Source: a virus (Duplodnaviria > Heunggongvirae > Uroviricota > Caudoviricetes). From it: 38,479 nt of DNA. Positions 10,359 to 30,472 of this stretch are shown here, one piece after another (positions within the stretch are counted from its first letter, which is position 1; the number at the start of each line of letters is the position of its first letter). The translations under genes were made by a program, and so were the position numbers. Location of the stretch: IMG/VR virus record IMGVR_UViG_2880372215_000012; one strand, given 5' to 3'. Below the pieces are notes generated by a model. It saw only the letters and a list, made by a program, of their open reading frames with translations, made no database searches and was not told where the DNA came from.

Positions 10359-10999
10359 TTGTCGGTATACCTCTCTCGTTTGCTCAGTTGTTCAGGAATA
10401 TGGTGCAGCAGCTCGCCATCACCACAGTAAATGGCGGCATGATTCGGCACCGATGAACCAAAACAGCACAGCAGCACATCGCCCGGTTGTGCTGATGACA
10501 ACGGCACCTGATACAGCCCTGTGGCCTCCAGATTATCCAGATAGAGATTCTGACCGTGACGCCACCAGTCATCCTCGCGATGAAAATCCGGCATCTCAAT
10601 CCCCGCCAGATGATAAGCATCCCGGAACAGCGTGTAACAGTCCGTCACCCCGTGCTCAAAGCGCCGCCCGGTGAGATGCGGCACACAGCGGAACTTATGA
10701 ATCGTCCCCCGGCAGACCAGCCACCACGGCAAATCACTCTGCACCTGCAGCCGCCGGTCGGCCTCACTCAGCCAGGGCAGACCACCGGGGTGGCTGTGGA
10801 CCAGCGCCACAATCTCACCCTGCATTTCTGCCTGCAGCCAGTCTTCCGGCGACATACGGAAATACGCCTCCGGCTCACCGGAGATATTCACGCAGGGGAA
10901 ATATCTTTCCCCCTCCGGCGTGCTTACCACGAAGCCGCACGACTCCGCTGGCGCACATCGCCGGGCGTGCGCCAGAATCGCTGATTCTGTCTGTGTCAT
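10256..10999 (-). CDS. K: Tail assembly protein K (MPN/JAB plus NlpC/P60 domains)
   Basis: Near-identical to lambda gpK (MTQTESAILAHARRCAPAESCGFVV..HSHPGG..). Confidence 0.9.
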   Translation of the reverse strand: MTQTESAILAHARRCAPAESCGFVVSTPEGERYFPCVNISGEPEAYFRMSPEDWLQAEMQGEIVALVHSHPGGLPWLSEADRRLQVQSDLPWWLVCRGTIHKFRCVPHLTGRRFEHGVTDCYTLFRDAYHLAGIEMPDFHREDDWWRHGQNLYLDNLEATGLYQVPLSSAQPGDVLLCCFGSSVPNHAAIYCGDGELLHHIPEQLSKRERYTDKWQRRTHSLWRHRAWRASAFTGICNDLAAASTFV

Positions 11000-11004
11000 G
11001 GGAT

Positions 11005-11703
11005 TTACTGCGAAAGTTTGTTAATGGAAAGGAAGCCGCCAAAGTTGCCGACGTTATTGCGGAACTTACAACCGCTCAGGCATTTGCTGCATTTATCCTT
11101 CGTGATATCGGACGTTGGCTGGTCATATTCATCCGCGACCGCCGGACCGTGATAACCGCACTCATCGCCGCGATAGGTCCAGGTGCAGGTGTTGGCCAGC
11201 ATGATACGTCCCGGAAAAACAGCGCCGTCCGTTTCCGTCGGCGTGGACAGTACAAAAGAGGCACTCACCGCGCTCAGTTCGCTGCACTGCTCAATGCGCC
11301 AGCGGCTGATCACCTCCTGCTCCGGATCGGCGTCGCTGTTTCCGTTGACGAAGTTCACCGCATCCAGAAAACGGGCGTAAACCTTACGCCGGACCACCGT
11401 TCCGCCGACCAGACTCTGCAGGTCTTCCGCCATCCCCGTGACCATGCCGTGCAGGTTAGAAACCGTCAGTGTCGGACGGGCAGAACTGCCCTTGCCGTTC
11501 AGTTCAAATCCCGTCCCCTGAATGGGGTATGCCTGATACTGCCGCCCCTGCCAGGTAACCGGCTCACCTTTTTCGTTCTGCTCATTACAGAAAAAATAAC
11601 GTTCACCACCGACCTCTGTCAGATCGATTTCCCAGAGCACCGCCTGGGCTGACTGAGTGAGGCGTGTCGTCTCATGATGTGTTTCCTGTGGAATATCCTG
11701 CAT
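11005..11703 (-). CDS. L: Minor tail protein L
   Basis: 232 aa; matches lambda gpL including the C-terminal Cys cluster. Confidence 0.9.
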   Translation of the reverse strand: MQDIPQETHHETTRLTQSAQAVLWEIDLTEVGGERYFFCNEQNEKGEPVTWQGRQYQAYPIQGTGFELNGKGSSARPTLTVSNLHGMVTGMAEDLQSLVGGTVVRRKVYARFLDAVNFVNGNSDADPEQEVISRWRIEQCSELSAVSASFVLSTPTETDGAVFPGRIMLANTCTWTYRGDECGYHGPAVADEYDQPTSDITKDKCSKCLSGCKFRNNVGNFGGFLSINKLSQ

Positions 11704-11712
11704 CAGAGCCTC

Positions 11713-12042
11713 CTATGCCACGACCTGTTCAAAATCTGCCGTTATGGTTACCCACAGCGCCCCCACGCTTGCCGACCATTTACGACAAACCACCCTGATC
11801 GGTTTCCAGTCATAAGGTGGCGTCCACTGAAATGCACGGACGCCACCGTGCCGTTCCAGAAAGGCTTTTAAAGATGGGTGTTCACATTTACGAACACGTA
11901 TCGTCACGCTGTAAGTCGACAACTGGTTATTCAGTCCCGCCGCACGACGCTGTTCATAACCATCGCCCAGCTTCACTGTCACCACTTTCGGCTCTGATAC
12001 CACATTCATATCCGGGCGCACTTTCCAGTGAAACGTCTCCAT
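11713..12042 (-). CDS. M: Minor tail protein M
   Basis: 109 aa; matches lambda gpM (..TYSVT..HGG..WTPPY.. ..FEQVV). Confidence 0.9.
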   Translation of the reverse strand: METFHWKVRPDMNVVSEPKVVTVKLGDGYEQRRAAGLNNQLSTYSVTIRVRKCEHPSLKAFLERHGGVRAFQWTPPYDWKPIRVVCRKWSASVGALWVTITADFEQVVA

Positions 12043-15000
12043 TACCGATATGCTCCACTTAACCGACCACCATCACGGGCCTGCTGTTGCATAAAGTCCG
12101 CTGCCGCTTTTTTCCCGAGGTCATAAACCGCCTTCAGGGCAGCCGGACCTATCTGCCCGTTCGTGCCATCGTTATTGATCTCGATGTTGTACTGCGGGGA
12201 AAACATCGCCATACCTGAACCCCCAATATCCGCCACAACCCCCAGCTTACCGTCAGCACCACGACGCAATGGCAGAATGGCTTCAGGTCCCGCTTCCCCC
12301 ATCACACCCGCGCCTTTTGCAAAAGCAAAAAACGTCGGACGGTTAACCACCGTGCCACTGTAACGACTCAAATCAGCAGACTGATAAATCCCCCCATTGG
12401 CATTCAGGGAAAGGCTGCTGAGATCAAATCCCAGTACACTGCCAATCCCTTTTATCGATTTCATCATGGTTGCCTGCGCCAGGATTTTCGCCATATCTGA
12501 CAGCACAGAAGAGGTGAAGGATTTGAAATTGAGTTTGCCGGTAGTGACAAAAGTTGCCAGGCCATTTCCCATGTTGCTGAAGGCTGACGAGAACACCTGT
12601 TCTGCTGTTTCTGCCGTATTATCTGCATCCACGGTAAAATCCTGAAATGCACGCAGGACTCCGTTTTTCCAGTTACCCTGTACAACTTCAAGCTGTTGCC
12701 AGTAACGGCGATTCTCATTCAGTTGTCGGTTCAGGCTCTCCGTCAGCGCCTGCTCGGCCTTTCTGTAGTCATCCGTGTTATATGTCCCTTTCTGCTCACT
12801 ATCCCGCCTCAACTGCTCCAGCTGTTGCTGGTATTTCTGGCGAAGACTCAGTTGTACCTGATATCGCTGTCGCTGCTGATCACCCATACCCACCGTGGCG
12901 ATATCCAGGTCATGTTGCTGACGCTGAGCGCGCTCTTCTTCAGCCAGTTGACTGGTCAGCTGAATTGTTTTTTTCTTCAGCTCGTTGAGTGCCGTCTGTT
13001 TCTGAAGCTCCTGCTGTTTTACATCCAGCAGCGTCAGTGCCTGAATCAGTTCATCTTTACGGGCCAGCACACTCTTTTCATCTGCCGTCAGTTTTTTCCC
13101 GTCCAGGTCGCTGATGCGCTGCTGCAGAGCCAGAAGCTGTTTACGCGCTTCTGTCATCCTTTCCGTGGCAATGCCTGCTGACTGTCTGGCAGCAGCAATC
13201 TGTCCTTCCACCTGTGCCTGTTGCTGACTGTACTGCAGCAATAACCGGGTGGCCTCATCATTACGGGTTTCGCGTGTTTTTTTCTTACCGGATGCCAGGG
13301 CTTTCTCGTAACGTTCATTTTCACGTTGTATCGCCGCATCCCTGACAGCCTGATCGGCGTACTGCATGGCATTAATACGCGCTATTTCACGCTGATGTCG
13401 TGCTGCTTCCGTTTCATTCATCCGGTTCAGTGCAGCATTTTCAGCATTACGGCGTTTCTGTTGCTCCTGATAATTCCGCTCTGCCTGCTCTTTTGCATCC
13501 TGCAAATCCTTCTGGCGTTTTTTCTCCTGAAGATCGTTAAGACGCTGCTGATCGTATTCAACCTGAGAAGATGATGCCGTCCAGGGGAGTCTTTTCGCCC
13601 GCGACACTTTCTCCTGTAAAGCGGCAATCTGTTCATCCAGCGAGTCTTCACGACCAATATTCATGGCCGCATCCCAGAAACGACTCCACAAATCAGACAG
13701 ATACTTCAGCGTACTGCCAAGCGCATTGAGGTTATTATCAATATCCGCAGTACGCCGACCGGTTTCCTCTGCCAGTGCAGACATGGCTATCCGTGCAGCA
13801 TCACTGGACCGCCCCTGCTCCCCAAGGACGCGTATCTGCTCAAGCTGAGTGGCAGTAAGAAAATGCAGCTCATTGTCCAGAGCCTTCGCGGCATTTACAG
13901 GATCATCCTTCAGCCGCTTAAACTGATTTATGGTATCGCTGACCGACTGGCCAACCGATCGCTCCATCTGTGCGGCAGCTCTCGCCACCATACCGATATC
14001 GTTTCCACGAAATGCACCACTCCCCACCACCTGAGCCAGCGCACCGGCTGCAGCATGTTGCGTGATACCATTCCCGGAAATAGCACGACTGAGCGTCCAC
14101 AGCTGCCCGGCAGTGACTCCGGCATAATGCCCCGTCAGCGACAGCTGGCGGTTAAATTCTTCCCCCTCCTTCTGACCGTCATACCAGGCTTTACCCAGAC
14201 CATAGACAGCCGCGGCAATACCGCCAATAACCGCTCCTGGCATCATGCCTTTCGGTGACATCAGTGTGTCTATCCACCCGGCACGGTTAGCCAGCGTTAT
14301 TCCGGATCCCCTCAGCGCACCTAAATTGCCGCGGGCCAGTTCACCTATCAGAACGCCTATCTCCTGACGGGCTGCTGCACTTTTCAGACCCAGCGAATGC
14401 GTGGCTTTTCCTGCCTGCTCCATTTTGCGGATATACACTTCTGCAGCACTGCTTACCCCCAGCTGGGCAGCCTTAGCACGAAGCAACTCAGAAGAAGAAA
14501 GATTCTGGCGGGTTGCCTGCTCTTTAAGCTGACGGATAAACGCCACTTTCTGTCGGGTAGCCTCTTCCTCAGCCTGTGTAAGAACACGGGTTTTCGCCGT
14601 AACCTCAGAAATCAGCGCCAGATAATCCTGCTGACCAATCCCGCCACTGTTTCTGGCCTGTCGGATCTGTTGCTGAATACGCTGTAATTCCTGCAGCCCC
14701 GCACCGGCCTGTTTCACACTGTCAATCTGACGATAAAACGCAGCAGCCGCTTTATCCTGAGCCTCCGCCAGAGCCATGGCCTGCGCCTGTTCCTCGCGCA
14801 TTTTCTGGCTCAGTGCCTCCATACGCTGGCGGGTTTGCTCCACCTCGCGGGCCATGCGTTCATGAGCCTGTGCGCTCTTCTCCACCGTCTGCGCATGGAC
14901 GGATGCGGCTGTTGCAGCCGAAGAAGCCGCCTGCATTGTCTGCCGGGCGGCCTGAGTCTGACGCTCCATAAAACGCTGCATACGGGCAGAAGACCGTTCT

Positions 15001-15107
15001 GCATCGCTGGCTGCACCATTCAGAAGGTTTTTGATACGGGGAATTTCATTTTTAAACTCTGCCGCATCAATCCCCAAATCAATGACCAGGTTGGCTATCT
15101 GGTCCAT
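12042..15107 (-). CDS. H: Tail tape measure protein H
   Basis: Start taken at MDQIANLVIDLGIDAAEF (lambda MAEPVGDLVVDLSLDAARF); C-terminus ..NNDGTNGQIGPAALKAVYD..RDGG matches the lambda gpH C-terminus; coiled-coil-rich middle. Confidence 0.9.
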   Translation of the reverse strand: MDQIANLVIDLGIDAAEFKNEIPRIKNLLNGAASDAERSSARMQRFMERQTQAARQTMQAASSAATAASVHAQTVEKSAQAHERMAREVEQTRQRMEALSQKMREEQAQAMALAEAQDKAAAAFYRQIDSVKQAGAGLQELQRIQQQIRQARNSGGIGQQDYLALISEVTAKTRVLTQAEEEATRQKVAFIRQLKEQATRQNLSSSELLRAKAAQLGVSSAAEVYIRKMEQAGKATHSLGLKSAAARQEIGVLIGELARGNLGALRGSGITLANRAGWIDTLMSPKGMMPGAVIGGIAAAVYGLGKAWYDGQKEGEEFNRQLSLTGHYAGVTAGQLWTLSRAISGNGITQHAAAGALAQVVGSGAFRGNDIGMVARAAAQMERSVGQSVSDTINQFKRLKDDPVNAAKALDNELHFLTATQLEQIRVLGEQGRSSDAARIAMSALAEETGRRTADIDNNLNALGSTLKYLSDLWSRFWDAAMNIGREDSLDEQIAALQEKVSRAKRLPWTASSSQVEYDQQRLNDLQEKKRQKDLQDAKEQAERNYQEQQKRRNAENAALNRMNETEAARHQREIARINAMQYADQAVRDAAIQRENERYEKALASGKKKTRETRNDEATRLLLQYSQQQAQVEGQIAAARQSAGIATERMTEARKQLLALQQRISDLDGKKLTADEKSVLARKDELIQALTLLDVKQQELQKQTALNELKKKTIQLTSQLAEEERAQRQQHDLDIATVGMGDQQRQRYQVQLSLRQKYQQQLEQLRRDSEQKGTYNTDDYRKAEQALTESLNRQLNENRRYWQQLEVVQGNWKNGVLRAFQDFTVDADNTAETAEQVFSSAFSNMGNGLATFVTTGKLNFKSFTSSVLSDMAKILAQATMMKSIKGIGSVLGFDLSSLSLNANGGIYQSADLSRYSGTVVNRPTFFAFAKGAGVMGEAGPEAILPLRRGADGKLGVVADIGGSGMAMFSPQYNIEINNDGTNGQIGPAALKAVYDLGKKAAADFMQQQARDGGRLSGAYR

Positions 15108-15422
15108 AACGCACACCTCCGGAAATACCTTCCCCAAGATGCATCAGTTCTTCGTCCGTTCGCTCCGGTATCCCGTTCTCTTCCGGTAAAAGGCTGAAAT
15201 CAGCCACCGCAGCATCACTGCTACCGGACACCATTCTCACGATCAATGCCTTCAGCGAGGCAAACTGCGCATCCATCCACACATCACTGAAGCTCTGCAT
15301 CCGGAAATAATCGCCCCACTCACCAAGCTCAGTGGCCGACATTTCCGACAGCATCCGCCGCCAGTCTGCCCGCCGGAACTCCCGGGCAAGCCGCATGACA
15401 AACTGCATTTCCCGCGTCAGGA
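15079..15422 (-). CDS. T: T-frame segment of the tail assembly chaperone G-T, reached by a programmed -1 frameshift from G
   Basis: ORF in the -1 frame relative to G, open from just upstream of the G stop; conserved G/GT arrangement of lambdoid tail operons. Confidence 0.7.
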
Positions 15423-15803
15423 CTTTTCCGGCGTCAGCACCTCATGCTCCAAATCCCCGGCATTCTCAATGGCTCCCATACCGCTCAGCGACAGAACCAT
15501 CTCCGCCCCCGCTCCCAGGGCATCATACGACCATGTTGTAATAACGGATGCGCAAAGCGTCTCAACATCCTGAGACTGTTCCGCATTCCACAGTGAGCGG
15601 GAAACCAGCCAAGCATTGATATCCATCCCCATCCGCAGAAAAGCAATCTGTCGTTCAGCCTCCGGCAGTTCTCCCTCTTCGGCATCAAACTTTGCCGTTC
15701 GCTGCTGAACAAACGCCAGATATTCAATTCTCTGCAGCCCGGACAGCTCACTGAGCACCACGGACTGCTTTTCATAATTAAACGTGCCCTGTTTCAGAAA
15801 CAT
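15417..15803 (-). CDS. G: Tail assembly chaperone G
   Basis: Position between V and T/H; N-terminus MFLKQ..SVVLSELSGLQRIEYLA resembles lambda gpG. Start could equally be 15806 or 15845. Confidence 0.8.
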   Translation of the reverse strand: MFLKQGTFNYEKQSVVLSELSGLQRIEYLAFVQQRTAKFDAEEGELPEAERQIAFLRMGMDINAWLVSRSLWNAEQSQDVETLCASVITTWSYDALGAGAEMVLSLSGMGAIENAGDLEHEVLTPEKS

Positions 15804-15863
15804 CATGTTCTCCACCTGCAAAAAAGCCCCGGATAACCGGGGCAAATGATGAGTATCGTCCTG

Positions 15864-16607
15864 TTAACCTGCAGCGCTGACAGTCACCGCAGCCACAGCC
15901 ACAAAATTCCCGTCAGCGGTCATGCCCACAATGCTGACGCTGCCCTGCTTCACGCCTTTCACCGTGGCCACAAGTCCGTTCAGGGTCACAGTGGCTGTCT
16001 GTGGATCTGTCGAATGCACACTGATCGCTTTGTCACTGGCTCCGTCAGGTTTTACTGTAAAGGTCAGCGTGGTGGTTGCTCCCACATTGACACTGGCGGA
16101 TGCCGGTGCCACCGTCAGCCCGGTAACGCCCACAGTTTCAGTGCCCTCCTCTGCCAGATATGGACGCCCCACACCGCTGATTTTCACTGTGCGGGTCATC
16201 ACGTCTTTTGAGGCAATGGTTTTACCCAGTGAGCTCAGCCAGCCGCGGAAAACATCAACAGTGCCGTTGGGATATTTGATACGAAACGCGCAGACTTCAC
16301 CGGAGTCGAACAACTGAACCAGTTTTTTCTGCCCGCTGTCACCCGGACGCCAGGCCAGCGTCGCCGAAGTATCACCAACGGATTTCTGCCCCTGGGTTGT
16401 CGTTTTCCAGTCTGCATCTTCATCATCGAGATAAGTGTCATCTTCTGCATCAGCGGTCATTTCGCCAGGTTGCAGATCCTTCACCATCGCAAGACGCAGC
16501 CAGTCAGTGTCCGACAAAGGGTTCGCAAACGCATCGCCGTTGCCGGTATACATCCAGAACGTCGTCCCCGCACCTTTCGTCTTTGCCAGTGGATTTGGCG
16601 TGGTCAT
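15864..16607 (-). CDS. V: Major tail protein V with C-terminal Ig-like domain
   Basis: MTTPNPLAKTKGAGTTFWMY..YLDDEDADW..VDVFRGW.. matches lambda gpV; Ig-like C-terminal domain. Confidence 0.9.
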   Translation of the reverse strand: MTTPNPLAKTKGAGTTFWMYTGNGDAFANPLSDTDWLRLAMVKDLQPGEMTADAEDDTYLDDEDADWKTTTQGQKSVGDTSATLAWRPGDSGQKKLVQLFDSGEVCAFRIKYPNGTVDVFRGWLSSLGKTIASKDVMTRTVKISGVGRPYLAEEGTETVGVTGLTVAPASASVNVGATTTLTFTVKPDGASDKAISVHSTDPQTATVTLNGLVATVKGVKQGSVSIVGMTADGNFVAVAAVTVSAAG

Positions 16608-16617
16608 TACCACCTCC

Positions 16618-17031
16618 TTAATTCGTGTACGTGATCTGGTACGTGATTTCCGCCATCGCCCAGGTGGCCATCTCATTATCACGTTGATAGTTAAAACCGA
16701 GTGGGATCAGGGTGTCGATGAGTCCGGAAAGTGCCGATACATCATTCAGGGCCGGGAAAATGGTGCTCTCCATCCACATATCCAGCTCTGAATCCGGTGC
16801 CTGTGCCCGGATGAAGACAGCAATATGCAGAACAGCCTGCCAGTCATCTTCATCCGTCATTTTTCCGGTGTACTGAGCATCACTCAGCCACACCGCCACG
16901 GCAGGCAGTTCCTGCGCATCAACAAATGCCGGAAGCCCGTCAAAAAACGTGGCGCTGTCTCCACACTGTTCCCGAAGGCGTGCCAGTACGACCTGGCGGA
17001 TTTGTGTATGTCGGTTCATCGGGTCAGCCAT
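16618..17031 (-). CDS. U: Tail terminator protein U
   Basis: ..ATFFDG..PAVAV.L..A.YTG....D.WQA.LHI.VF..AQ.PDSELD.WMES.. matches lambda gpU. Confidence 0.85.
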   Translation of the reverse strand: MADPMNRHTQIRQVVLARLREQCGDSATFFDGLPAFVDAQELPAVAVWLSDAQYTGKMTDEDDWQAVLHIAVFIRAQAPDSELDMWMESTIFPALNDVSALSGLIDTLIPLGFNYQRDNEMATWAMAEITYQITYTN

Positions 17032-17594
17032 AACCTCAGTTGTTGTTTCAGTGCATACCCCAGCTGTTTCGGCATTTCCGCAGCAATGATGCGGTCGCGG
17101 GCATCTTCAAATGCCTGTGTCAGCGGTCCGGACAGCGGGATTTTCACCACATCAATGGGGTAACGATTTTTGCCATCAATACGCCGCATCACATGCCAGC
17201 GACCATTCGCCAGTTGCTGAATAAACGCATCCCGGAAAAGATATTTACCCACCTTCAGCACACTGCCACGGTACTGCAGTTTTCCACCACGCTGGGCCAG
17301 TCTGACCCGGGCTGTCCCCAGCTTAATGGCGGGCAGATTGCCCCGGTTAACGCGGATCCTGGCCGTCATTTTTCCTGACGGACTGGCTTTAAACACCCGG
17401 ACACGCTGACGAACCAGTTTCAGGGGGATCCCTTTCACCTGGTTATCTCCCGCAACGGTATTCCCGGCAACCTGCCGGGTGGCAACCGAGCCCGCTTTCT
17501 GTGCCACACGGTTTATCGCCCATGCGCTGGCCTGTGGCACCATACGGGTATCAAGGCTGTTCAGATTGCGGATGGCATTCTCAAGCCCCTTCAT
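17016..17594 (-). CDS. Z: Tail completion protein Z
   Basis: 192 aa; ..NGRWHVM.R..GKNRYPIDVVKIP.. matches lambda gpZ. Confidence 0.85.
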   Translation of the reverse strand: MKGLENAIRNLNSLDTRMVPQASAWAINRVAQKAGSVATRQVAGNTVAGDNQVKGIPLKLVRQRVRVFKASPSGKMTARIRVNRGNLPAIKLGTARVRLAQRGGKLQYRGSVLKVGKYLFRDAFIQQLANGRWHVMRRIDGKNRYPIDVVKIPLSGPLTQAFEDARDRIIAAEMPKQLGYALKQQLRLWLTR

Positions 17595-17605
17595 CCCACA
17601 CCTCT

Positions 17606-17881
17606 TTACTCAATAAAGATCATTGGCTTACCGTTAAAGCGTTCATGCCGTGTGACCGTCCATTGTTGTCCGTCATAAACAACGCGATCCCCGCGCCGTG
17701 GGCGGTATCCCGAAGAAAACACCACCAGAGAGACCGCAGGTCCGGACAGAGCATTCAGCTCTGCCAGTGTTTCTCCCGGGATCACAGTCATATCGACATC
17801 ATTAATCGAGGCTGTCTTTCCCATCTTTCTGACCGTGATAGCATCCATACGCGCTGCCAGCCGGGAAAAGGGATCAGACAT
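17606..17881 (-). CDS. Putative head-tail adaptor / head completion protein (occupies the FII position)
   Basis: 91-aa ORF between the head module and Z; no direct lambda FII sequence match recognised; called by position. Confidence 0.45.
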   Translation of the reverse strand: MSDPFSRLAARMDAITVRKMGKTASINDVDMTVIPGETLAELNALSGPAVSLVVFSSGYRPRRGDRVVYDGQQWTVTRHERFNGKPMIFIE

Positions 17882-18197
17882 TGAGTTTTACCGGCACTTC
17901 TTCTGCACTGGTTCCGGCATCTGCCCAGACAACCCCGACCAGCGGATCAGAGCCGCTGTTAGTCAGCTGAACTTTTCCTGACTTCAGATAAACCTTCTTA
18001 CCCGTTTTCATGTCATCCGTTTTCAGCTTAGGCAGCATAAACACACCTTCGGTCATGCCGTCGCCTGTTTCACCCTGTGGAATATCGGTCAGCGCCACCG
18101 CAAAAACATCGCCCACCTGCACCAGATCTCCGCTGCTGATGGCTGCACTGGCAACAATCGCCACCGTTTTTCCTTCTTCTACAAAATTCTTTGCCAT
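17874..18197 (-). CDS. Small head-associated protein, possibly DUF2190-type
   Basis: 107 aa from MAKNFVEEGKT..; ATG preceded by GGAGA; lies directly after the capsid gene. Confidence 0.45.
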   Translation of the reverse strand: MAKNFVEEGKTVAIVASAAISSGDLVQVGDVFAVALTDIPQGETGDGMTEGVFMLPKLKTDDMKTGKKVYLKSGKVQLTNSGSDPLVGVVWADAGTSAEEVPVKLNV

Positions 18198-18240
18198 AAC
18201 TGTCTCCGCACAGCCCCGTTCAGGGGCTGATTTCAGGTAC

Positions 18241-18260
18241 AAAAAAAGCCCTTACGGGCC
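18241..18260 (-). terminator. Intrinsic terminator immediately downstream of the major capsid gene
   Basis: On the minus strand: GCCC-gtaa-GGGC followed by T7; a second hairpin (18211..18229) lies just upstream of the next RBS. Confidence 0.45.
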
Positions 18261-18283
18261 ATCAGAGTTGTTGTCTGCGACGT

Positions 18284-20242
18284 TTACGCCGTACATTTCA
18301 CCAGACCGCGGTGATCAACTGGCGCGACACCGGCGTCAATACGCACTTTCGTTGTCACGCCATCCACACTGAAGCCCTCCATCTGATCAATATATGGCGT
18401 ATCCACACCGTTGAGATAAGCCACTTCAATCGTATCGGAGCCTTTTGACGCAGCCAGGTAGAAGGTGGTCTGGCTGTTATCATCAAGACGAGGCTCTGCA
18501 ATAACGGTCGCAAAATCTTTCACCGGGTTAATAATACCGGCGTTAATGTCAGCCCCCTTGACACTTGAGGAGCGAATGACCTGGTTAGCAACAGACTCCA
18601 TCGCCGTCGGTACCAGTACGAACGCAGGACGAATATTCAGATGACGCTCCCCCTCTTTCTGAACGCGCATCAACTGGCGGGCTTTATCCAGCGATGCCAC
18701 GTCCATTGCAGCGCTCTCCAGTACGTTTGCATGTTTCGCTTTATCGAACAGACTTACATTATCTGTGGAGATTTTCGGGTTAGACGTCAGAATGGCATAA
18801 ACCAGATCGGCAATAGTGGATTTCGCCGCACGGCCCAGTTTCATCGGGACATCGGTCAGCATATTCAGATCATCATTGATAATGGCCTGACGGGTGATAC
18901 TGAACAGCTCGCCATAGGTCGCCAGTGCAATAGTGGCCTGTTTATCTCCGGTGGTGACGTATTTATATTCCGCCCCTTCACGCACCTGACGCAGAGCACT
19001 GAAGCCCCCCATACCCACACGATGGGCAATTTTAAAATCAGACAACTGACCTTTCCGCGTCCACTGTTCATAGGTTTCAGGGGCATCTTCCCAGCCCTGC
19101 AGAATGGCTTTGTTCGCAACATCCAGCAGAATATTACCGAAGTCAGACGTACTGTGTGTGAACGCCGCACCGACCATCTGCATCGGGTTATAACTGGAAA
19201 CCCCAATACCCCGTTCAGTCAGTGACATACGGGCATATTCACGCAGGGTCATCCCGTTGTAGACATTATCACGTTCGGTTTTTTCAAATCCGGCACGCGC
19301 CATCAGCGCCTGGCGGATCCCATCCCCCACAAAATTACCGTTTCCGGCATAAATATGAGCCGGGGTATTTTTATTAGATGGCGTGGACTCGCGCCCCATC
19401 TCGTTCAACAGCTTTTCGCGGGCCTGCTCCAGCGAACATTCAGGATCGGCAAGACACTGAGCCTGCAGCGTCTGATAACGCCCGCCAAACATGGCAAACA
19501 GATCATTAATACCGTTTACACGCGCTTTTTGCTCTGCCAGTACCTGCGCACGGATACTGTTTTCATCCACCACAGGTGCTGCTGCCTGCACTGGCGTCCG
19601 GGAGGCTGCAGGTCCATCATCCTGTACGCGTGGAGCACTGTTGCGTGGCGGAGTAATCATGTTTCGAATGGATTCCGGCATCTTTTTAAATTCCTCTGTA
19701 CGTTTTGACTGAATACATGCCATTGCCTTAACGGCTGGCGTCACCTGATCAGCAAATCCATGTGCCAGACATTCGGCACCGGACATCCAGGTCTCATCCG
19801 CCAGCATGGCAGCAATTTCATCGGTGGTTTTCCCGGTTTTCTGTGCATAAGCGGGTAACAGAACCGCCTCAACTTTATCGAGCAGGTCGGCATAGGTGCG
19901 CATGTCCTCCGCATCACCGCCCGTAAAGCCAAATGGTTTATGAATCATCATGAAGGAGTTTTCCGGCATAATGACCGGTTTTCCCACCATCGCAATGACC
20001 GACGCCATTGACGCCGCCACACCGTCGACATAAACGGTAATGGACGCACCATGTGTTTTCAGTGCATTAAAAATGGCGATGCCTTCAAAGACATCGCCAC
20101 CCGGTGAATTGATATTGAGATTAATGTGGGTGATATCGCCCAGTGCATTCAGATCACTGATAAACTGCTTCGCTGTAACACCCCAGAAACCAATCTCGTC
20201 ATAAATATAAATATCCGCGTCACTCTGGTGACCAGCCTGCAT
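18284..20242 (-). CDS. Prohead protease (ClpP/S14-like) fused to an HK97-fold major capsid protein
   Basis: N-terminal region ..DIYIYDEIGFWGV..NSPGGDVFEG..ASMASVIA..MIHKP.. is ClpP-like; the C-terminal ~350 aa is capsid-like; lies between portal and head completion genes. The exact start is uncertain (taken at MQAGHQSDADIYIY). Confidence 0.8.
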   Translation of the reverse strand: MQAGHQSDADIYIYDEIGFWGVTAKQFISDLNALGDITHINLNINSPGGDVFEGIAIFNALKTHGASITVYVDGVAASMASVIAMVGKPVIMPENSFMMIHKPFGFTGGDAEDMRTYADLLDKVEAVLLPAYAQKTGKTTDEIAAMLADETWMSGAECLAHGFADQVTPAVKAMACIQSKRTEEFKKMPESIRNMITPPRNSAPRVQDDGPAASRTPVQAAAPVVDENSIRAQVLAEQKARVNGINDLFAMFGGRYQTLQAQCLADPECSLEQAREKLLNEMGRESTPSNKNTPAHIYAGNGNFVGDGIRQALMARAGFEKTERDNVYNGMTLREYARMSLTERGIGVSSYNPMQMVGAAFTHSTSDFGNILLDVANKAILQGWEDAPETYEQWTRKGQLSDFKIAHRVGMGGFSALRQVREGAEYKYVTTGDKQATIALATYGELFSITRQAIINDDLNMLTDVPMKLGRAAKSTIADLVYAILTSNPKISTDNVSLFDKAKHANVLESAAMDVASLDKARQLMRVQKEGERHLNIRPAFVLVPTAMESVANQVIRSSSVKGADINAGIINPVKDFATVIAEPRLDDNSQTTFYLAASKGSDTIEVAYLNGVDTPYIDQMEGFSVDGVTTKVRIDAGVAPVDHRGLVKCTA

Positions 20243-20255
20243 CCTGAACCAGGAA

Positions 20256-21765
20256 TTATTCTTCGGACTGGTCGTCGGTGTGCTGCGGCTCCTGTCGTTT
20301 CGTTGCGGCACTGCTGCCTCCTTTATCACTGGCCGGATCGGTATCAAATACCAGATCCAGCTTGCGGTTTTCATCAATTTCGGCCTTGCGCCGACGTTTG
20401 ACATCATCCGGATTACGACCACCTGCACGTACCCAGTCTGATTCTGTCGCTGCTCCACCACGAATCTGAATTTTCCAGGCCTCAGCCTCCTTAACAGGGT
20501 CAATCCACGGCATCACCGGTCCGGAATACACCGCGGTATACAGTGAAGAACGGTCAAGATCGCGGGGTAGCCTGATAACACCGGATGCCACAGCCTGTTT
20601 CAGCCAGGCACGATACATCGGGCGGGTGACGGCACCAATAAACCAGTCCTGCAGGATCAGGTAGCCATCAGTGGATTCAACCAGCTCCTGACGCTGGGCG
20701 CTGTAAGTGCCGTTATAGTTGCGCGCTGTACTGGAAAAAATTCAGACGACTGCCCGCCGCCACGGCACGCAACTGACCATTACGAAAAGTTTCAAGGTTA
20801 GGATTGGGGCGATCCGACTTCACCATTCCGATTTCTTCGCCGGGTTTCAGATCGTCGTAAATAATGCCTGGCTGAATGGTAAGCTCGCGTTCCTTATCCT
20901 TGCTGCCATTACCATCCGGTTCATAGCTCTGCCCATCGCCTTTCCGGATGTACATCCCCAGAGCAGCGGCGATCCTTGCTGCAGTCAGCTCAGAATCCTC
21001 ATACTCTTTCAGGGCACTGAGGCGGATCAGCACACCGGACAACAAAGACGTCCCGCGCATCTGGTGCAGACGGCGAACAAATTTAAGATGCAGCATTCGC
21101 TCTGCATCCACTTCTTTGGTTTCCATCTGCCGTCCGGATACGGGACGGCTTTTATACACCAGATATTTTTCGGGACGCCCCCAGTCATCAACAAACACGC
21201 CCTGATTCAGCCTGTTGCTCTCATCACTGGTCATGGGAATAAAGTCTGGCTCGAGCGCCTCCAGCCAGAAATGAACACCGGCAGAAGGCGTCAGGCTGTT
21301 TATGCGCCCGGAAACCATCTGGGCAAACACCTCACCATCGCGCAGCCAGGTACGCAGCATCAGACGTTCCAGCATCGGACGGGTAAACTGCCCGGTGACT
21401 TCCGGACTGACAGACCATTCACTCCATCGGGTGCGTATCTCCGCTGCCAGATCACGGGCAATGGCCCCATTGCGTAATACCGGATGTGGCTCGACAATAA
21501 TCCCGTTTTTCCCCACCACCCGTTCTTCCAGCTTGTCAAATACACCAATAACCAGATCGTGGTTGTTATCAAGGTAACGGGCCTGCTCACGTAACGACAC
21601 GGCCCCGTACTGGCTTAACTGGTCGGCAGTTCGGTTTTCCCGCCGGGCTTTGTGTGTCCGCGTCGTTTTTACGGCCTCATAAGCCTGGATCACCGCACGG
21701 GAACGCAGCCTTGCCGCTTTCCATCCTGGTGAAAAAACGCCAATCACATCATCAAGAATTGCCAT
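20256..21765 (-). pseudogene. Portal protein gene interrupted by a frameshift at an A6/T6 homopolymer (20735..20740)
   Basis: N-terminal ORF 20713..21765 ends ..SRLNFFQYSAQL*, while the downstream frame continues ..IFSSTARNYNGTYSAQRQELVES..MYRAWLKQ.. to 20256. Removing one A from the run joins the two into a ~500-aa portal. Confidence 0.7.
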
Positions 21766-21983
21766 CAGAACCTCGCCAGCCGGTACCCGGGATGCCCCCG
21801 TCGTCGTGTAATCAGAGCCGCAAGGCGGCGCTCCCACTCCTGCCGTCCCTGCCGGATCTCAGATAAGTTTTCCATGGTCATCTGCTGACCATTAAAGGTG
21901 ACGGATTTTCCGTCCAGCACCGCCATTTCAGCTTCCGTATAACGCTGAATCATGGCTTCGATATCATTCTGGTTCATAACCAT
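21765..21983 (-). CDS. Head-tail joining protein, gpW-like
   Basis: 72-aa ORF between terminase large subunit and portal, with overlapping stop/start; size and position as lambda W. Confidence 0.6.
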   Translation of the reverse strand: MVMNQNDIEAMIQRYTEAEMAVLDGKSVTFNGQQMTMENLSEIRQGRQEWERRLAALITRRRGHPGYRLARF

Positions 21984-24076
21984 CCTCCGGAAGTCAGCCA
22001 GGGGTTAACATCGTCAGTTACTGTTTTCTTCCGTTTTTGTTTTTTAACAGGCGTGGATACCGGTTCCGGTGAGGGTGACGGTTCGGTACTGTCCGGGACA
22101 CTCTCCAGCCAGGTTTCCCGGCTCGCCCACCCCGGTGCATCCGGCCAGCGGATCTTTTCGTATCCATGCAGAATGACCAGAGCCTCGGCATACACCATCA
22201 GGTCAAAAGCTTCGTTGGCACCGCGACCCGGCTTACTCCATTTCCCGTCACTACTCCGCTCTTCATACGTCAGTTCGTCGTAAAACCAGCTCCCCAGCCA
22301 GTCAGGGAAATGCACATAGCCGGGACCTGGAGAGTCACGCCATAACGCGTTATTCACCCGGTCTTTCAGTGCATCCGTCTGAAGAAGCCAGAGCGGCACA
22401 TCACCTGCGGCCTGCGCCCGTCGGCCCGTTCGTCCGGTGTTATCAGGGAATGTACGGGTGATCAGTTTTGCGCGCCGGATGCTGTCGCCCTTAAACAGGT
22501 AAATACGTTTACCAAGGCCATCACGACGGCAACGACGCCAGAATTTATAGGCATTATCAGTGACCCCGTCTTCACCGCCGGAGTCCACCGCCATTGCCAT
22601 CAGTCGCATTTGTTGAGAAGGATCGGAGGCCAGCGGCCAGCTTTTATGAAAAACATCCGTCAGCAGGACATCCCAGTCTTCCGGATAGCTGGCCGGATCA
22701 ATTCGCTGGCTCTCACCGTCGCTGTCACCGCGCAATGACTGCGTGATGTTGTAACGATCAATAATCCAGCGTTCGCCACGGCTGCCATAGCCCGTTACCT
22801 GAACCACAAAACGGCGATGACGTCCCGCCTGCACATCCACTGTCGCCACAAGGAAATTAACGCCATCCGGCACACTGCTGGAAGGAACTGGCTCTGCCCG
22901 CTGCTCAAGCAGTTCACTTTTTCGTTGCTCCATGCTGGCGCGGGGAAGATAAGGTAATCCCCAGTCGGTATTGATAACCGTCTTGAGTGTTTCTTCACTT
23001 CCGGTTGTCTCGTATTCCTGTTCTGCAGTAAGCAGTTTGTAAACGAGTTGCGAGAGTGTCTGGTAAGCAGCTGCCGGACCCTCCATCCAGAATGACGCAA
23101 TACGTGAGCGTCGGGGATCACCATAACGACTACCATCCGCATTGATGGATTCACCATCCCGCAACCAGACCCCACGTCCGTTCAGCTCACGTTTTTGTTC
23201 AGGCATAATCCGTCCTGAACAGGAAGGACACTGAATATAAGCCGCCTCACTTGCCAGCACGGGATCGGCAATATCACGGAAACCAGCAACCACATCGCCG
23301 CAGGGCTGAAAATACTCACCACAGTGTGGACAGGGCCAGTACCAGCGACGGCGATCGCCACGGTTATAGAGCGACAGTATCCCCGTGGTTGGTGGAGCCT
23401 CATGCGGTGAAGTCCGTCGCCATTTCACATCCTTCACATCCCTGCCGGGGGAACTCTCCACCAGCGTCATACCACTGGACATAAATGTGGTGGTACGTTT
23501 TGAGGCAAGAGAGAAGGCATCCCCCTCGCCATCAATATCTTCCGGAAAACGGTCATAATCCGTCAGCGCCACGCATTTATAATCTGATGAGGACATGATA
23601 TTGACTGACGGCCAGCCGATTTTCAGGTAGTTGCCAGCAAGGAATGTTCTGTCATAAACGTTGTTGTCATTTTTGTTCGGACTCAGGCGACTGACCACTT
23701 CCGGGCTGACGCGAAACGTTCTGGCGAGTCGTTTTTTGGAGTGTTCGCGGGCTTTTTCCTCCGTCATCTGAATGATCAGCATATCCGCAGGATCGCAAAT
23801 CACGTTGTAAATCACCCAGCCGTCAATCAGGCCGATAGTCTTGCCGGTTCGTGCCGGGCCAACAAATATCACTGCGTCGTATTCACGCGAGGCCAGGCAG
23901 TTCATCGGCTCAATAACATACGGTGCCACCAGCGGATCCCACGGGACTGAGTTCCCGGCCCCCATGGGCACCCGCATATACTGAGCAACGGCATCAGCAA
24001 CCCGCATTCGTCTCGGTGCGCGAAGGATATAACCTGAATCGGTTCGTGCTGCCTTTGCGGTTTCCTGATTCAGCAT
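21974..24076 (-). CDS. Terminase large subunit (lambda gpA family)
   Basis: 700 aa; Walker A GPARTGKT near the N-terminus; CPHCG..CPSC zinc-ribbon-like motifs; position after the small subunit. Confidence 0.9.
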   Translation of the reverse strand: MLNQETAKAARTDSGYILRAPRRMRVADAVAQYMRVPMGAGNSVPWDPLVAPYVIEPMNCLASREYDAVIFVGPARTGKTIGLIDGWVIYNVICDPADMLIIQMTEEKAREHSKKRLARTFRVSPEVVSRLSPNKNDNNVYDRTFLAGNYLKIGWPSVNIMSSSDYKCVALTDYDRFPEDIDGEGDAFSLASKRTTTFMSSGMTLVESSPGRDVKDVKWRRTSPHEAPPTTGILSLYNRGDRRRWYWPCPHCGEYFQPCGDVVAGFRDIADPVLASEAAYIQCPSCSGRIMPEQKRELNGRGVWLRDGESINADGSRYGDPRRSRIASFWMEGPAAAYQTLSQLVYKLLTAEQEYETTGSEETLKTVINTDWGLPYLPRASMEQRKSELLEQRAEPVPSSSVPDGVNFLVATVDVQAGRHRRFVVQVTGYGSRGERWIIDRYNITQSLRGDSDGESQRIDPASYPEDWDVLLTDVFHKSWPLASDPSQQMRLMAMAVDSGGEDGVTDNAYKFWRRCRRDGLGKRIYLFKGDSIRRAKLITRTFPDNTGRTGRRAQAAGDVPLWLLQTDALKDRVNNALWRDSPGPGYVHFPDWLGSWFYDELTYEERSSDGKWSKPGRGANEAFDLMVYAEALVILHGYEKIRWPDAPGWASRETWLESVPDSTEPSPSPEPVSTPVKKQKRKKTVTDDVNPWLTSGGWL

Positions 24077-24567
24077 TACTCCTCCTGCTGTAATTCCTCC
24101 TCATCATCCGCACCTGCTTCGGTCACCCGCAGGGCTATCTGATCGCGCAGATCATCAATAATGGACTGAACACGGCTCACAGCGGCAGGCTGCAGACCAC
24201 AGTCACGTTCCAGAATATCCGGTAATGTCTCCAGCACCTGCACGACCGCTTTTGCCCAGATGGCAAACTCCCGTCTGACATCACTGGCCGGAATGAGTTG
24301 TGCCGTTTCCTGTTCGAACTTAAGACGCTCACGTTCAGACTGATACCAGGCTTTGCGTTCATGTGGATCCATTTCGCCCTCAGCAACCGGCGGTGGTAAC
24401 CCCATAAATTCAGTCAGAATATCGGTCAACCGGTATAGCTTGAGTTTGTCATGTCCACCAGCGGGACGAATGTTTTTCAGTCTTGCCACGACAGTCTGGC
24501 GGTGCAGACCAGATAAAGCCGCCAGTTGATTAATATTCAGCACCAGGTTTTTCAACTCATGATCCAT
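24076..24567 (-). CDS. Terminase small subunit (Nu1-like, N-terminal winged HTH)
   Basis: 163 aa; HTH LNINQLAALSGLHRQTVVARL; acidic C-terminus; translationally coupled to the large subunit. Confidence 0.65.
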   Translation of the reverse strand: MDHELKNLVLNINQLAALSGLHRQTVVARLKNIRPAGGHDKLKLYRLTDILTEFMGLPPPVAEGEMDPHERKAWYQSERERLKFEQETAQLIPASDVRREFAIWAKAVVQVLETLPDILERDCGLQPAAVSRVQSIIDDLRDQIALRVTEAGADDEEELQQEE

Positions 24568-24595
24568 ATTTCCTCCGGAGAGCTTTAAACATGCA

Positions 24596-24657
24596 TCGTG
24601 CGAACAACTTTAAGAAAACGCGTTCGATGTCGAACAAAAAACACTCAATTCGACATA
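24596..24657. promoter_or_regulatory. Cluster of palindromes (GTTCGAtgTCGAAC; ATGTCGAA-N15-TTCGACAT) 30-90 bp upstream of the terminase small subunit; candidate terminase-binding (cosB-like) or operator sites
   Basis: Read directly from the sequence; function inferred from position only. Confidence 0.3.
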
Positions 24658-25381
24658 CAAAAAACAAATAACCATTAATAATCAATAAGATGCAAAGATG
24701 ATGGTGGCCGATAAAAATGCAAAAACTAGCCTTTTTCCGCGACGCTCCCGCCCCGTGGCAGGCCACCCCACCGGGAGGAGCCGTCAGCCTGAAAGCCATG
24801 ACGAACGTCTGATACAGCCCTTGCATGAATGGCATCGGGATAATCCAGAAAGGAATAGCATCGACCCACAAGAATCTGTGTGAGTGTCCTGTTTCTTCCA
24901 CCCCCGCACAGGACTGGCGAGCATGAGGGACAAACCCGCGAATCATTAGCGCGGTAAAAACCCGGTGTGCATCGTTTTTGATTATTCCCGCACACTCGCG
25001 CAGAAGGAGTTCCCCGTCGGGCTACGGTCATGGTTAATGCGGGAATACAGCGACGATACAGCGCATGATGTGTCAGGCTTGAATACCTTTATCCGTTAAA
25101 AGGGATATCAGTTAAGTTATCCCGTGTAGGGTATAAGCCATTATCAAAGCCACTCTGTAGGGAGTGGCTTTTGTAATGGCAATAAAAAAGCCCCGCGAAT
25201 GCGAGGCTAAATCCAGGTATTTTTAATGACTGGCTCTTATCTCAACGCAGCCCCTTACCGCGCGCCAGATGCTCAATATCAAGCATCAGCAATGAGATGT
25301 TTAACCATGATTCACTCCAGAAGTGAGCACCACCCTGTCTACAGAGCCAGATGTGAAGGATGATGAGTAAAATTATCGCTA

Positions 25382-25849
25382 TCATCGAAGGCATTGCGTC
25401 CTGATGTATTCCTGAAGCGTTCTCAGTGCTGTTTGGTCGCGGATAATTCCGTCCCGGATACCGAGAACGTTTCGTCCAGCAACTGGAGAGAGTTCGACGG
25501 TGGCATCATTGCCCATGCCGGAGGCGCTGGAGGTTTCGTCTGAGGATGGCACAGGGCATTTTCCTTTGACGAACACCCGACCACCATTATCAAGCTTGCG
25601 CCGAAGAGCATCATTTTTAGCTTTCGCATCAGCTAACTCCTTCGTGTATTTAGCATCGAGTGCATCAGCAGCACGCTGGCGCTGCTGCATGTCAGTAATG
25701 GTGGCGGTCGCCTGCTTCAGCTCACTGACTTTTTTATCACGCTGTTCTTTATAGGCGATGGCGTTATCACGGTAATGATTAACCGCCCATGACTGGCAGA
25801 CGATGATGCAGATAACCAGAGCGGAGATAATCGCGGTTACTCTGCTCAT
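25382..25849 (-). CDS. Rz: Spanin inner-membrane subunit Rz
   Basis: [34 protein letters not shown].. matches lambda Rz. Confidence 0.85.
25423..25629 (-). CDS. Rz1: Spanin outer-membrane lipoprotein Rz1, embedded in the +1 frame of Rz
   Basis: [21 protein letters not shown].. with lipobox VVGC and a Pro-rich segment, nested entirely within Rz as in lambda. Confidence 0.7.
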
Positions 25850-29512: not shown

Positions 29513-30472
29513 ATGAAAAAAAGTGTCATCGCTGGCGTCTTTATTGCTCTGTCATTTACCACGTGTTCAGCTATCGCGAACAGCCTTGCATTATCATTAG
29601 CAAATGATGATGCAGGGAAGTTTCAACCAATACTTAATGATATTTATGGCAATAAACATGAAAACAGAGATGATTACTCACAAGGCTTATTTCTGGGATA
29701 TAGCCACGATATCTCAGACTCGAGCCAATTATCTCTCCATATTGCGCAAGATATTTACTCTCCATCAGGCAGTAATAAAAGACACAACACAGCTGTAACT
29801 GGAGACAGAGCTTTTAGTGCATACACTCACACTGGTATTGAATGGAACTCCCTTGCGAATGACTGGATTCGCTATCGATTAGGTACTGACATAGGTGTTG
29901 TTGGCCCCGACGCAGGCGGTCAGAAAGTACAAAATAAAGCTCATGAGATTATTGGGGCAGAAAAATATCATGCATGGGATGATCAAATAGAGAATCGCTA
30001 CGGTTATACTGTAAAAGGGATGCTATCCATGACACCAAGTATGGATATTTTAGGTGCTAATGTTGGATTATACCCTGAAGTTTCTGCTGTTACTGGAAAC
30101 TTATTTCAATATGTAGCATATGGCGCAACCATTGCCATTGGTAATGATAAAACCTTCAATTCGGATAATGGCTTTGGTCTGCTGGCTCCCCGTGGTTTAA
30201 TGCATATGTCCGATACAAGCGGATTCAAATACAAGATTTTTGCAGGTATGGAAAGACGAGATGTCAATCGCAACTATACTCTCGAAGGAAAAACAATACA
30301 GACGAAACAAACAACAGTATCGCTAAACAAAACTGTTGATGAATATCAAGTTGGCGCAACAATTGGGTATGCACCTGTAGCCTTCACACTAGCATTTAAT
30401 AAAGTAACATCAGAATTCAAGACAGGGGATGACTATTCATTTATAAATGGAGCAATCACCTTCTTTTTTTAA
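29513..30472 (+). CDS. lpxR: Outer-membrane beta-barrel protein, probably LpxR-family lipid A 3'-O-deacylase; opposite-strand moron between ninI and Q
   Basis: 319 aa; signal peptide MKKSVIAGVFIALSFTTCSAIA; C-terminal ..GAITFFF aromatic terminus typical of beta-barrels; length and remembered motifs fit LpxR. RBS AAGGAAG upstream; about 300 bp of roughly 75 percent AT upstream. Confidence 0.55.
   Translation: MKKSVIAGVFIALSFTTCSAIANSLALSLANDDAGKFQPILNDIYGNKHENRDDYSQGLFLGYSHDISDSSQLSLHIAQDIYSPSGSNKRHNTAVTGDRAFSAYTHTGIEWNSLANDWIRYRLGTDIGVVGPDAGGQKVQNKAHEIIGAEKYHAWDDQIENRYGYTVKGMLSMTPSMDILGANVGLYPEVSAVTGNLFQYVAYGATIAIGNDKTFNSDNGFGLLAPRGLMHMSDTSGFKYKIFAGMERRDVNRNYTLEGKTIQTKQTTVSLNKTVDEYQVGATIGYAPVAFTLAFNKVTSEFKTGDDYSFINGAITFFF

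Follow-up and report, generated by a model that had tools for sequence, protein, structure and literature searches.

Head and packaging genes of the mEp460 type, with a frameshifted portal gene, in a lambdoid prophage of Escherichia coli O157:H7

Positions 17606-24567 of the DNA considered here, a 38,479-nucleotide stretch of a virus of the Caudoviricetes (IMG/VR record IMGVR_UViG_2880372215_000012; the whole stretch is called the window), very probably represent the head and DNA-packaging half of the late operon of Sp3, a defective lambdoid prophage of Escherichia coli O157:H7, with a virion module of the type found in mEp460, cdtI and Gifsy-2. We take Sp3, as the prophage is named in strain Sakai, to be the same as CP-933K of strain EDL933. 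The module belongs to a known prophage type, catalogued before and very common, and the Sp3 copy is a decaying remnant of it. Window positions 17000-25500 are 100% identical over 8.5 kb to many E. coli O157:H7 chromosomes, and at least 80% of this interval is found in 1776 of 5426 complete E. coli genomes. The prophage copy of strain TR01 adjoins ybhC, carries nleH1-1, nleC and nleB2 and is devoid of repressor and replication genes, a location and gene content that match those of Sp3 of Sakai. Sp3 has been described as having no repressor or replication functions, with its portal listed as defective (PMC2669165, Table 1), and as showing no circularisation, replication or packaging (PMC2669165, Table 2).

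The same genes, from the small terminase (TerS) to J and in the same order, are carried by mEp460 (NC_019716), cdtI (NC_009514), Ayreon and Tritos, which are isolated, viable lambdoid phages, and by their relatives; nucleotide identity between these phages and the window is 95-97% over 92-100% of positions 5500-24600 (97% over 19.1 kb). From the large terminase (TerL) through M the products are 95-100% identical in amino acids (aa) to those of mEp460, and phages of the mEp460 type share with the window the protease/capsid fusion, the cement protein and the 91-aa protein described below. The window differs from this group in its frameshifted portal gene and in belonging to a prophage without immunity and replication genes. 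It also departs from it in lom (89% aa identity), in the side tail fibre (62-76% aa) and in the 5' half of the TerS gene (24360-24567), where nucleotide identity to mEp460 falls to 74% from the 96-100% of the remaining module; this drop marks a true mosaic junction inside TerS. Gifsy-2 of Salmonella (NC_010393) displays the same architecture, with a DUF1441 TerS, a gpA TerL, a small adaptor, a lambda-family portal, a 696-aa ClpP/capsid gene, a small decoration gene and a PF13856 protein, followed as in the window by Z through J; unlike the window it is evenly diverged and carries, between its M and L genes, two morons, sodC and a homologue of lom.

The capsid fusion and the packaging genes

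Mapping of the mEp460 and lambda proteins onto the window places the head and packaging genes in a contiguous minus-strand string that fills 17606-24567, with Z, U, V, G, T, H, M, L, K, I, J, lom and the side tail fibre gene downstream; the gene coordinates given by a first-pass annotation, made from the sequence alone, proved exact. The gene order is throughout that of lambda (Nu1-A-W-B-C/Nu3-D-E-FI-FII-Z...J). That annotation had assigned the head genes to a lineage different from lambda's, which is right in so far as their distance from lambda is much greater than that of the tail genes. It goes too far for TerL and the portal, which share Pfam, TIGRFAM and PHROG families with their lambda counterparts, and for TerS, the protease part of the fusion and the FII-like 91-aa protein, which are remote relatives of lambda proteins. 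The module differs from lambda as follows: the protease is of the S14 ClpP type versus the S49 type of gpC, protease and capsid protein form a fusion whose capsid part matches Phage_capsid_4 instead of the gpE family, the decoration protein is a DUF2190 protein and not gpD, there is no FI, and the protein in the position of W falls in another PHROG. By these family matches, the capsid, decoration and W-position proteins are assigned to non-lambda families.

Each product was compared by tblastn with lambda, Gifsy-2, VT1-Sakai and mEp460, a pair being counted as without hit when no match was found at E<1e-3 for lambda proteins or at E<1e-2 for window proteins. Lambda was represented by J02459. 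Lambda Nu1, W, B, C, Nu3, D, E, FI and FII have no match in the window at the former threshold, and the high identity to C, Nu3, D and E that was looked for as evidence against a separate head type is therefore absent. The head genes are no closer to HK97, whose gp1-gp7 give no tblastn match at E<1e-2, the only matches being those of H-J at 28-37%; for want of similarity to its head genes, an HK97-like head was rejected. Apart from TerL (25%), no product of the module upstream of Z has a hit in lambda. Amino-acid identities to Gifsy-2, VT1-Sakai and mEp460 are, in this order, 48, 59 and 86% for TerS, 70, 71 and 99% for TerL, 49, 77 and 100% for the W-position protein, 60, 50 and 99% for the decoration protein and 45, 57 and 100% for the 91-aa protein. 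For the N- and C-terminal parts of the portal they are 61/74, 78/77 and 99/100%, and for the protease/capsid fusion 70, 73 and 99%, the value for VT1-Sakai covering 56% of a gene that is split there by IS629.

The gene at 18284-20242 (minus strand, 652 aa) had been proposed to unite a protease with the major capsid protein, and its domain content bears this out. Pfam CLP_protease matches residues 23-168 (E 5e-36) and Phage_capsid_4 residues 355-649 (E 1.4e-54), with a further match to Mu-like_gpT (E 3.7e-8). With 980.5 bits the product passes the curated cut-off (475 bits) of NCBIfam NF045540, 'ClpP-like prohead protease/major capsid protein fusion protein', its residues 9-651 aligning with positions 2-651 of the 652 of the model, and it matches PHROG 133 over its full length. 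In an alignment with ClpP (1y7o), GVAASMA and MIHKP of the product fall on the catalytic serine and histidine motifs, GMAASMG and MIHQP, and its C-terminal part weakly matches PDB entries 8rkx/8rkc, 'Mu GpT domain-containing protein' (E 2e-4). RefSeq already names the gene as a ClpP-like prohead protease/major capsid protein fusion, a name borne by many of its 3638 database homologues, the best 120 of which are all at least 75% identical, with E. coli oversampled. Two starts compete for the gene, the ATG at 20242 used in mEp460 (652 aa) and a GTG at 20311 (minus strand) used by PGAP, which gives 675 aa and an overlap with the 3' end of the portal gene; the database homologues mostly have the longer N-terminus. 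Head function of Sp3 was scored as absent in the 2009 survey of the Sakai prophages (PMC2669165); we infer that the capsid domain, lying inside a 'protease' gene, had gone unrecognised.

Several points count against this reading or limit it. The third catalytic residue aligns as a glutamate or as a shifted aspartate, with no clean aspartate. An AlphaFold prediction of the 652-aa protein, made with a shallow alignment of 16 sequences (76-96% identical), reached a mean pLDDT of 34 and a pTM of 0.20, and the two-domain architecture is predicted from profile matches only. No specific paper on this capsid type and no solved structure of it was found, and the assembly pathway (autoproteolysis, the linker as scaffold, the mature N-terminus) is suggested by domain content and by analogy with HK97 and Mu. 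In principle, gp5 of HK97 with its scaffolding delta domain and gpI/gpZ plus gpT of Mu work alike, since a scaffold is borne on the capsid or protease polypeptide and is removed by a phage protease; the fusion differs from both in that protease, linker and capsid protein are all part of one polypeptide. The HK97 protease belongs to a herpesvirus-like family and not to a ClpP-like one.

At the upstream end of the module, TerS (24076-24567, minus, 163 aa) matches Pfam DUF1441 (E 4.6e-44) with no Phage_Nu1 match in the Pfam search, as expected of the non-Nu1 small terminase that had been announced. It falls in PHROG 141, 'terminase small subunit' (E 2.7e-77), and weakly cross-matches PHROG 57, that of lambda Nu1 (E 8e-9; about 1e-8 in each direction); its closest counterpart in mEp460 is gp01. 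Upstream of TerS lie approximately 620 bp (24568-25190) without a convincing gene, which presumably hold the packaging site and are bounded by a strong terminator-like hairpin at 25208-25189. TerL (21974-24076, minus, 700 aa) has the Pfam domains GpA_ATPase (E 9e-72) and GpA_nuclease (E 2e-85) and lies in PHROG 15 together with lambda A; although only 24.6% identical to lambda A, as against 99% to gp02 of mEp460, it is by its domains a large terminase of the gpA family, lambda's own. The 70-aa product of 21765-21977 (minus), 100% identical to gp03 of mEp460, had been called gpW-like. It does sit in the position of lambda W; in the Pfam search, however, it gives no gpW match and only a weak one to DUF6148, and it belongs to PHROG 118, 'head-tail adaptor' (E 1.4e-37), lambda W being in PHROG 75.

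Past the stop of the capsid gene, a terminator-like hairpin (18260-18247, minus), GGCCCGTAAGGGCT followed by TTTTTTT, stands at a place equivalent to that where a rho-independent terminator is annotated in mEp460. The 107-aa product of 17874-18197 (minus) is a predicted decoration or cement protein that matches Phage_cement_2 (DUF2190; E 9e-21) and PHROG 122, 'head decoration' (E 1.8e-47), as opposed to PHROG 49 for lambda D. Last before Z, in the position of lambda FII, the 91-aa protein (17606-17881, minus) matches Pfam PF13856 'Gifsy-2' (E 1.8e-17) and PHROG 153 (E 9e-47), which lambda FII itself weakly matches (E 3.9e-7). It has a weak, below cut-off match to Phage_attach, the family of lambda FII (E 0.0018), and no pairwise BLAST similarity to FII; by these profiles the best reading is that of a head-closure protein remotely related to FII.

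The portal gene

The portal gene (20256-21765, minus) is broken by a frameshift which the first-pass annotation had missed. Residues 1-343 and 343-503 of the mEp460 portal map to two different frames of the window, and the gene measures 1510 nucleotides versus 1509 in mEp460. Alignment at 20740/20741 sets mEp460 GAGTTTTTC against window GAATTTTTTC (GAG TTT TTC to GAA TTT TTT C), that is, one nucleotide gained in a run that passes from T5 to T6, beside a G-to-A change that is synonymous (GAG to GAA). Two open frames result: 20713-21765, encoding the N-terminal 343 aa and an out-of-frame tail of eight codons, and 20256-20738, encoding the C-terminal 161 aa. On the minus strand of 20713-20765 the context reads TCG TCT GAA TTT TTT CCA, and the truncated frame stops at 20713. 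The 'different portal' of the annotation is different in sequence, the mEp460 portal being 21% identical to lambda gpB in a direct pairwise comparison (E 6e-9), and not in family: the intact mEp460 orthologue (99-100% identical), on which the test was made, scores 459 bits against TIGR01539 portal_lambda (cut-off 172.7 bits) and also matches Pfam Phage_portal_2. The profiles thus assign the portal to lambda's own family, with the window copy inactivated. With this +1 frameshift the module cannot build heads on its own, and heads can be assembled only if the portal comes from another prophage.

A change in a T run is a typical site of sequencing or assembly error, and the portal might be truly intact; we give this next to no credence. 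The exact 45-mer containing the frameshift occurs once per genome in 286 independently assembled complete E. coli genomes, the neighbouring G-to-A substitution accompanies the T6 run, genomes with this allele have two portal pieces in their PGAP annotation, and the 2009 analysis of Sakai had already listed the Sp3 portal as defective (PMC2669165). Error at the homopolymer was therefore rejected. As 286 genomes share the frameshift, and as the intact allele is present at 99% identity or more in at least 718 genomes, we regard it as a real, lineage-specific inactivating mutation. One may also wonder whether the lesion is bypassed by the ribosome. A +1 slip of tRNA-Phe from TTT to TTC on TTT_TTT_C returns to the original frame and, the GAG to GAA change being synonymous, restores the exact mEp460 sequence (..SSEFFQY..), and a head needs only 12 copies of the portal. 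The remaining head genes are all intact, with 99-100% identity to those of a viable phage, and complementation among defective O157 prophages has been reported (PMC2669165), so that the little portal made could serve the module itself or complement other O157 prophages. However, the slip site is missing in the intact relatives, which marks it as a mutation instead of a conserved signal for recoding; the T run is followed by neither a rare codon nor a stop that would stimulate a +1 shift; and Sp3, without repressor and replication genes, is not circularised, replicated or packaged (PMC2669165, Table 2). We therefore hold such a bypass to be very improbable, and just as little can be wagered on the notion that the frameshifted allele, fixed in O157:H7, yields some portal of wild-type sequence while the intact Sp3 head genes act as spare parts for other O157 lambdoid prophages.

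The tail genes and the head-tail joint

Homologues of all eleven lambda tail genes, Z, U, V, G, T, H, M, L, K, I and J, are detected by tblastn in lambda order, with Pfam matches to Minor_tail_Z, Phage_tail_U and Phage_TTP_12. The first-pass annotation held that Z through J and lom are near-identical to lambda, and this is not the case for most of them. Genes Z to M (11713-17594, minus) encode proteins of lambda-type families with 25-56% aa identity to lambda and 50-70% nucleotide identity (approximately 66% for Z-U-V), as against 95-100% aa identity to mEp460 and 42-69% to Gifsy-2. Identities to lambda, Gifsy-2, VT1-Sakai and mEp460 are, respectively, 50, 42, 43 and 99% for Z, 52, 53, 48 and 99% for U, 55, 69, 57 and 98% for V, 32, 56, 33 and 95% for G, 38, 52, 41 and 100% for T, 26, 60, 24 and 98% for H, and 56, 61, 56 and 100% for M. 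The only truly near-identical segment is that of the tail-tip genes L, K, I and J up to codon ~983 (6700-11703, minus), whose products are 79-98% identical to those of lambda: 93, 66, 76 and 99% for L in the same order of comparison, 98, 76, 88 and 98% for K, 80, 62, 61 and 94% for I, and 88, 67, 76 and 97% for J, the VT1-Sakai match of J covering 16% only. The last ~150 codons of J and lom (5567-6700, minus) are again distant from lambda, at 44-51% nucleotide identity per 100-nucleotide interval, and lom shows 45% aa identity to lambda, 33% to Gifsy-2, no hit in VT1-Sakai and 89% (89.5%) to mEp460.

In a 100-nucleotide sliding comparison, 93-100% nucleotide identity to lambda is confined to ~11700-10260 (L, K) and ~9985-6700 (the end of I, and J to approximately codon 983). 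Inside I, at ~9985-10260 (~275 nucleotides), lies a divergent patch of ~50% nucleotide identity, and a similar value is found for the last ~150 codons of J (6237-6700). The C-terminus of lambda J is its receptor-binding end, and the diverged end of J suggests a receptor specificity different from that of lambda. At the end of G (15417-15431, minus) the sequence reads ...CCG GAA AAG TCC TGA, with the T frame at -1 relative to that of G, a relation in keeping with the G/G-T frameshift conserved in lambda-type tails; the window has the heptamer G GAA AAG where lambda has G GGA AAG.

As to recombination in the module, it had been proposed that a foreign head and packaging module was joined to a near-lambda tail by a crossover between the 91-aa gene and Z. 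Some evidence runs that way and against a long association of head and tail: similarity to lambda rises exactly at Z, from undetectable or 21-25% upstream to ~50% aa identity at BLAST level, and in VT1-Sakai a head of this type (70-78% aa identity) goes with V, H and M proteins that share 80% identity with lambda, so that reassortment of head and tail-shaft genes must have occurred somewhere in the history of the wider group. Such reassortment agrees with a published view of lambdoid phages in which the head genes and the tail genes each make up a co-transfer module of their own (PMC9836094). However, Z to M are themselves merely 25-56% identical to lambda in amino acids, ~66% or less in nucleotides, and no step accompanies the joint against either mEp460 or Gifsy-2. 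Identity to mEp460 remains flat, at 96-100% of nucleotides, from ~11500 to ~24360, straight across the joint, and the module is found from TerS to J in Gifsy-2 as well, at 42-76% aa identity, with 45% for the 91-aa protein and 42% for Z. Among the 60 listed of 275 matching phage records, 14 span 80% or more of the module, and in all of these head and tail occur together; no recent junction at the 91-aa/Z boundary was found against these 60 records, mEp460 or Gifsy-2. Sharp junctions with lambda lie elsewhere, at ~11700 (M/L), at ~10260-9985 inside I and at ~6700 (J codon ~983). We consequently find a crossover at Z unlikely. Since no identity step against mEp460 or Gifsy-2 occurs there, the 91-aa/Z joint is at most an old module boundary and not a recombination junction in the window. 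The per-gene comparison with lambda and HK97, which had been put forward as a check, thus upholds the distance of the head genes from lambda and HK97 and leaves nothing of a near-lambda identity for Z to M and lom. The combination of this head type with a lambda-type tail is, by these comparisons, old, stable and common, a named phage type and no special case; head and tail have travelled together in this lineage, and its only recent lambda-like exchange is that of L-K-I-J.

Proposed working and meaning of the module

Domain content and gene order are what we observed; from the families, and by analogy with lambda, HK97 and Mu, the working of an intact module may be sketched as follows. The DUF1441 TerS would recognise the packaging site, and the gpA-type TerL would cut the DNA and pump it through the lambda-family portal, which would also nucleate the procapsid. 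The 652-aa polypeptide would consist of an N-terminal ClpP-like maturation protease, a helical linker (approximately residues 170-350) presumed to act as an internal scaffold, and a C-terminal capsid protein of ~300 residues; it may co-assemble with protease and linker facing inward, after which the protease would cut away itself and the linker by autoproteolysis. The DUF2190 cement protein would then decorate and stabilise the shell, and the W-position adaptor and the FII-like 91-aa protein would close the head and dock the lambda-type tail. In the Sp3 copy, the +1 frameshift in the portal would stop independent head building.

Further features lie outside the head and packaging genes. A truncated bet directly abuts ninE at ~32300-32400, and the whole immunity and replication region has therefore been deleted from the prophage. 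Downstream of the tail fibre genes, positions 1-3743 form a low-GC cargo block (0.38-0.40), whose counterpart in TR01 is annotated with nleH1-1, nleC and nleB2, genes for type III effectors, beside the remnant of a tail fibre assembly gene. Between Q and the nin genes, a low-GC gene on the plus strand (29513-30472) is annotated in TR01 as a lipid A deacylase of the LpxR family. The TR01 copy, otherwise 99.7-99.9% identical, is missing 1310 bp of the window (33927-35236); this segment holds two minus-strand open reading frames (33969-34859, 296 aa, and 34856-35182, 108 aa) and, by size and open reading frame pattern alone, looks like an IS629/IS3-family element.

Beyond correct annotation, the region is of little importance: it is a textbook case of lambdoid mosaicism, with a head type found in approximately one third of complete E. 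coli genomes. For annotation, the fusion gene, to which the label 'Clp protease' or 'protease/scaffold' is often given, also encodes the major capsid protein, and for this very common protease-scaffold-capsid fusion we found no solved structure or mapped cleavage site. The portal pseudogene of the Sp3 copy accords with the immobility of Sp3. Finally, comparisons of such prophages with lambda should place the recent exchange at L-K-I-J, and not at the joint between head and tail.

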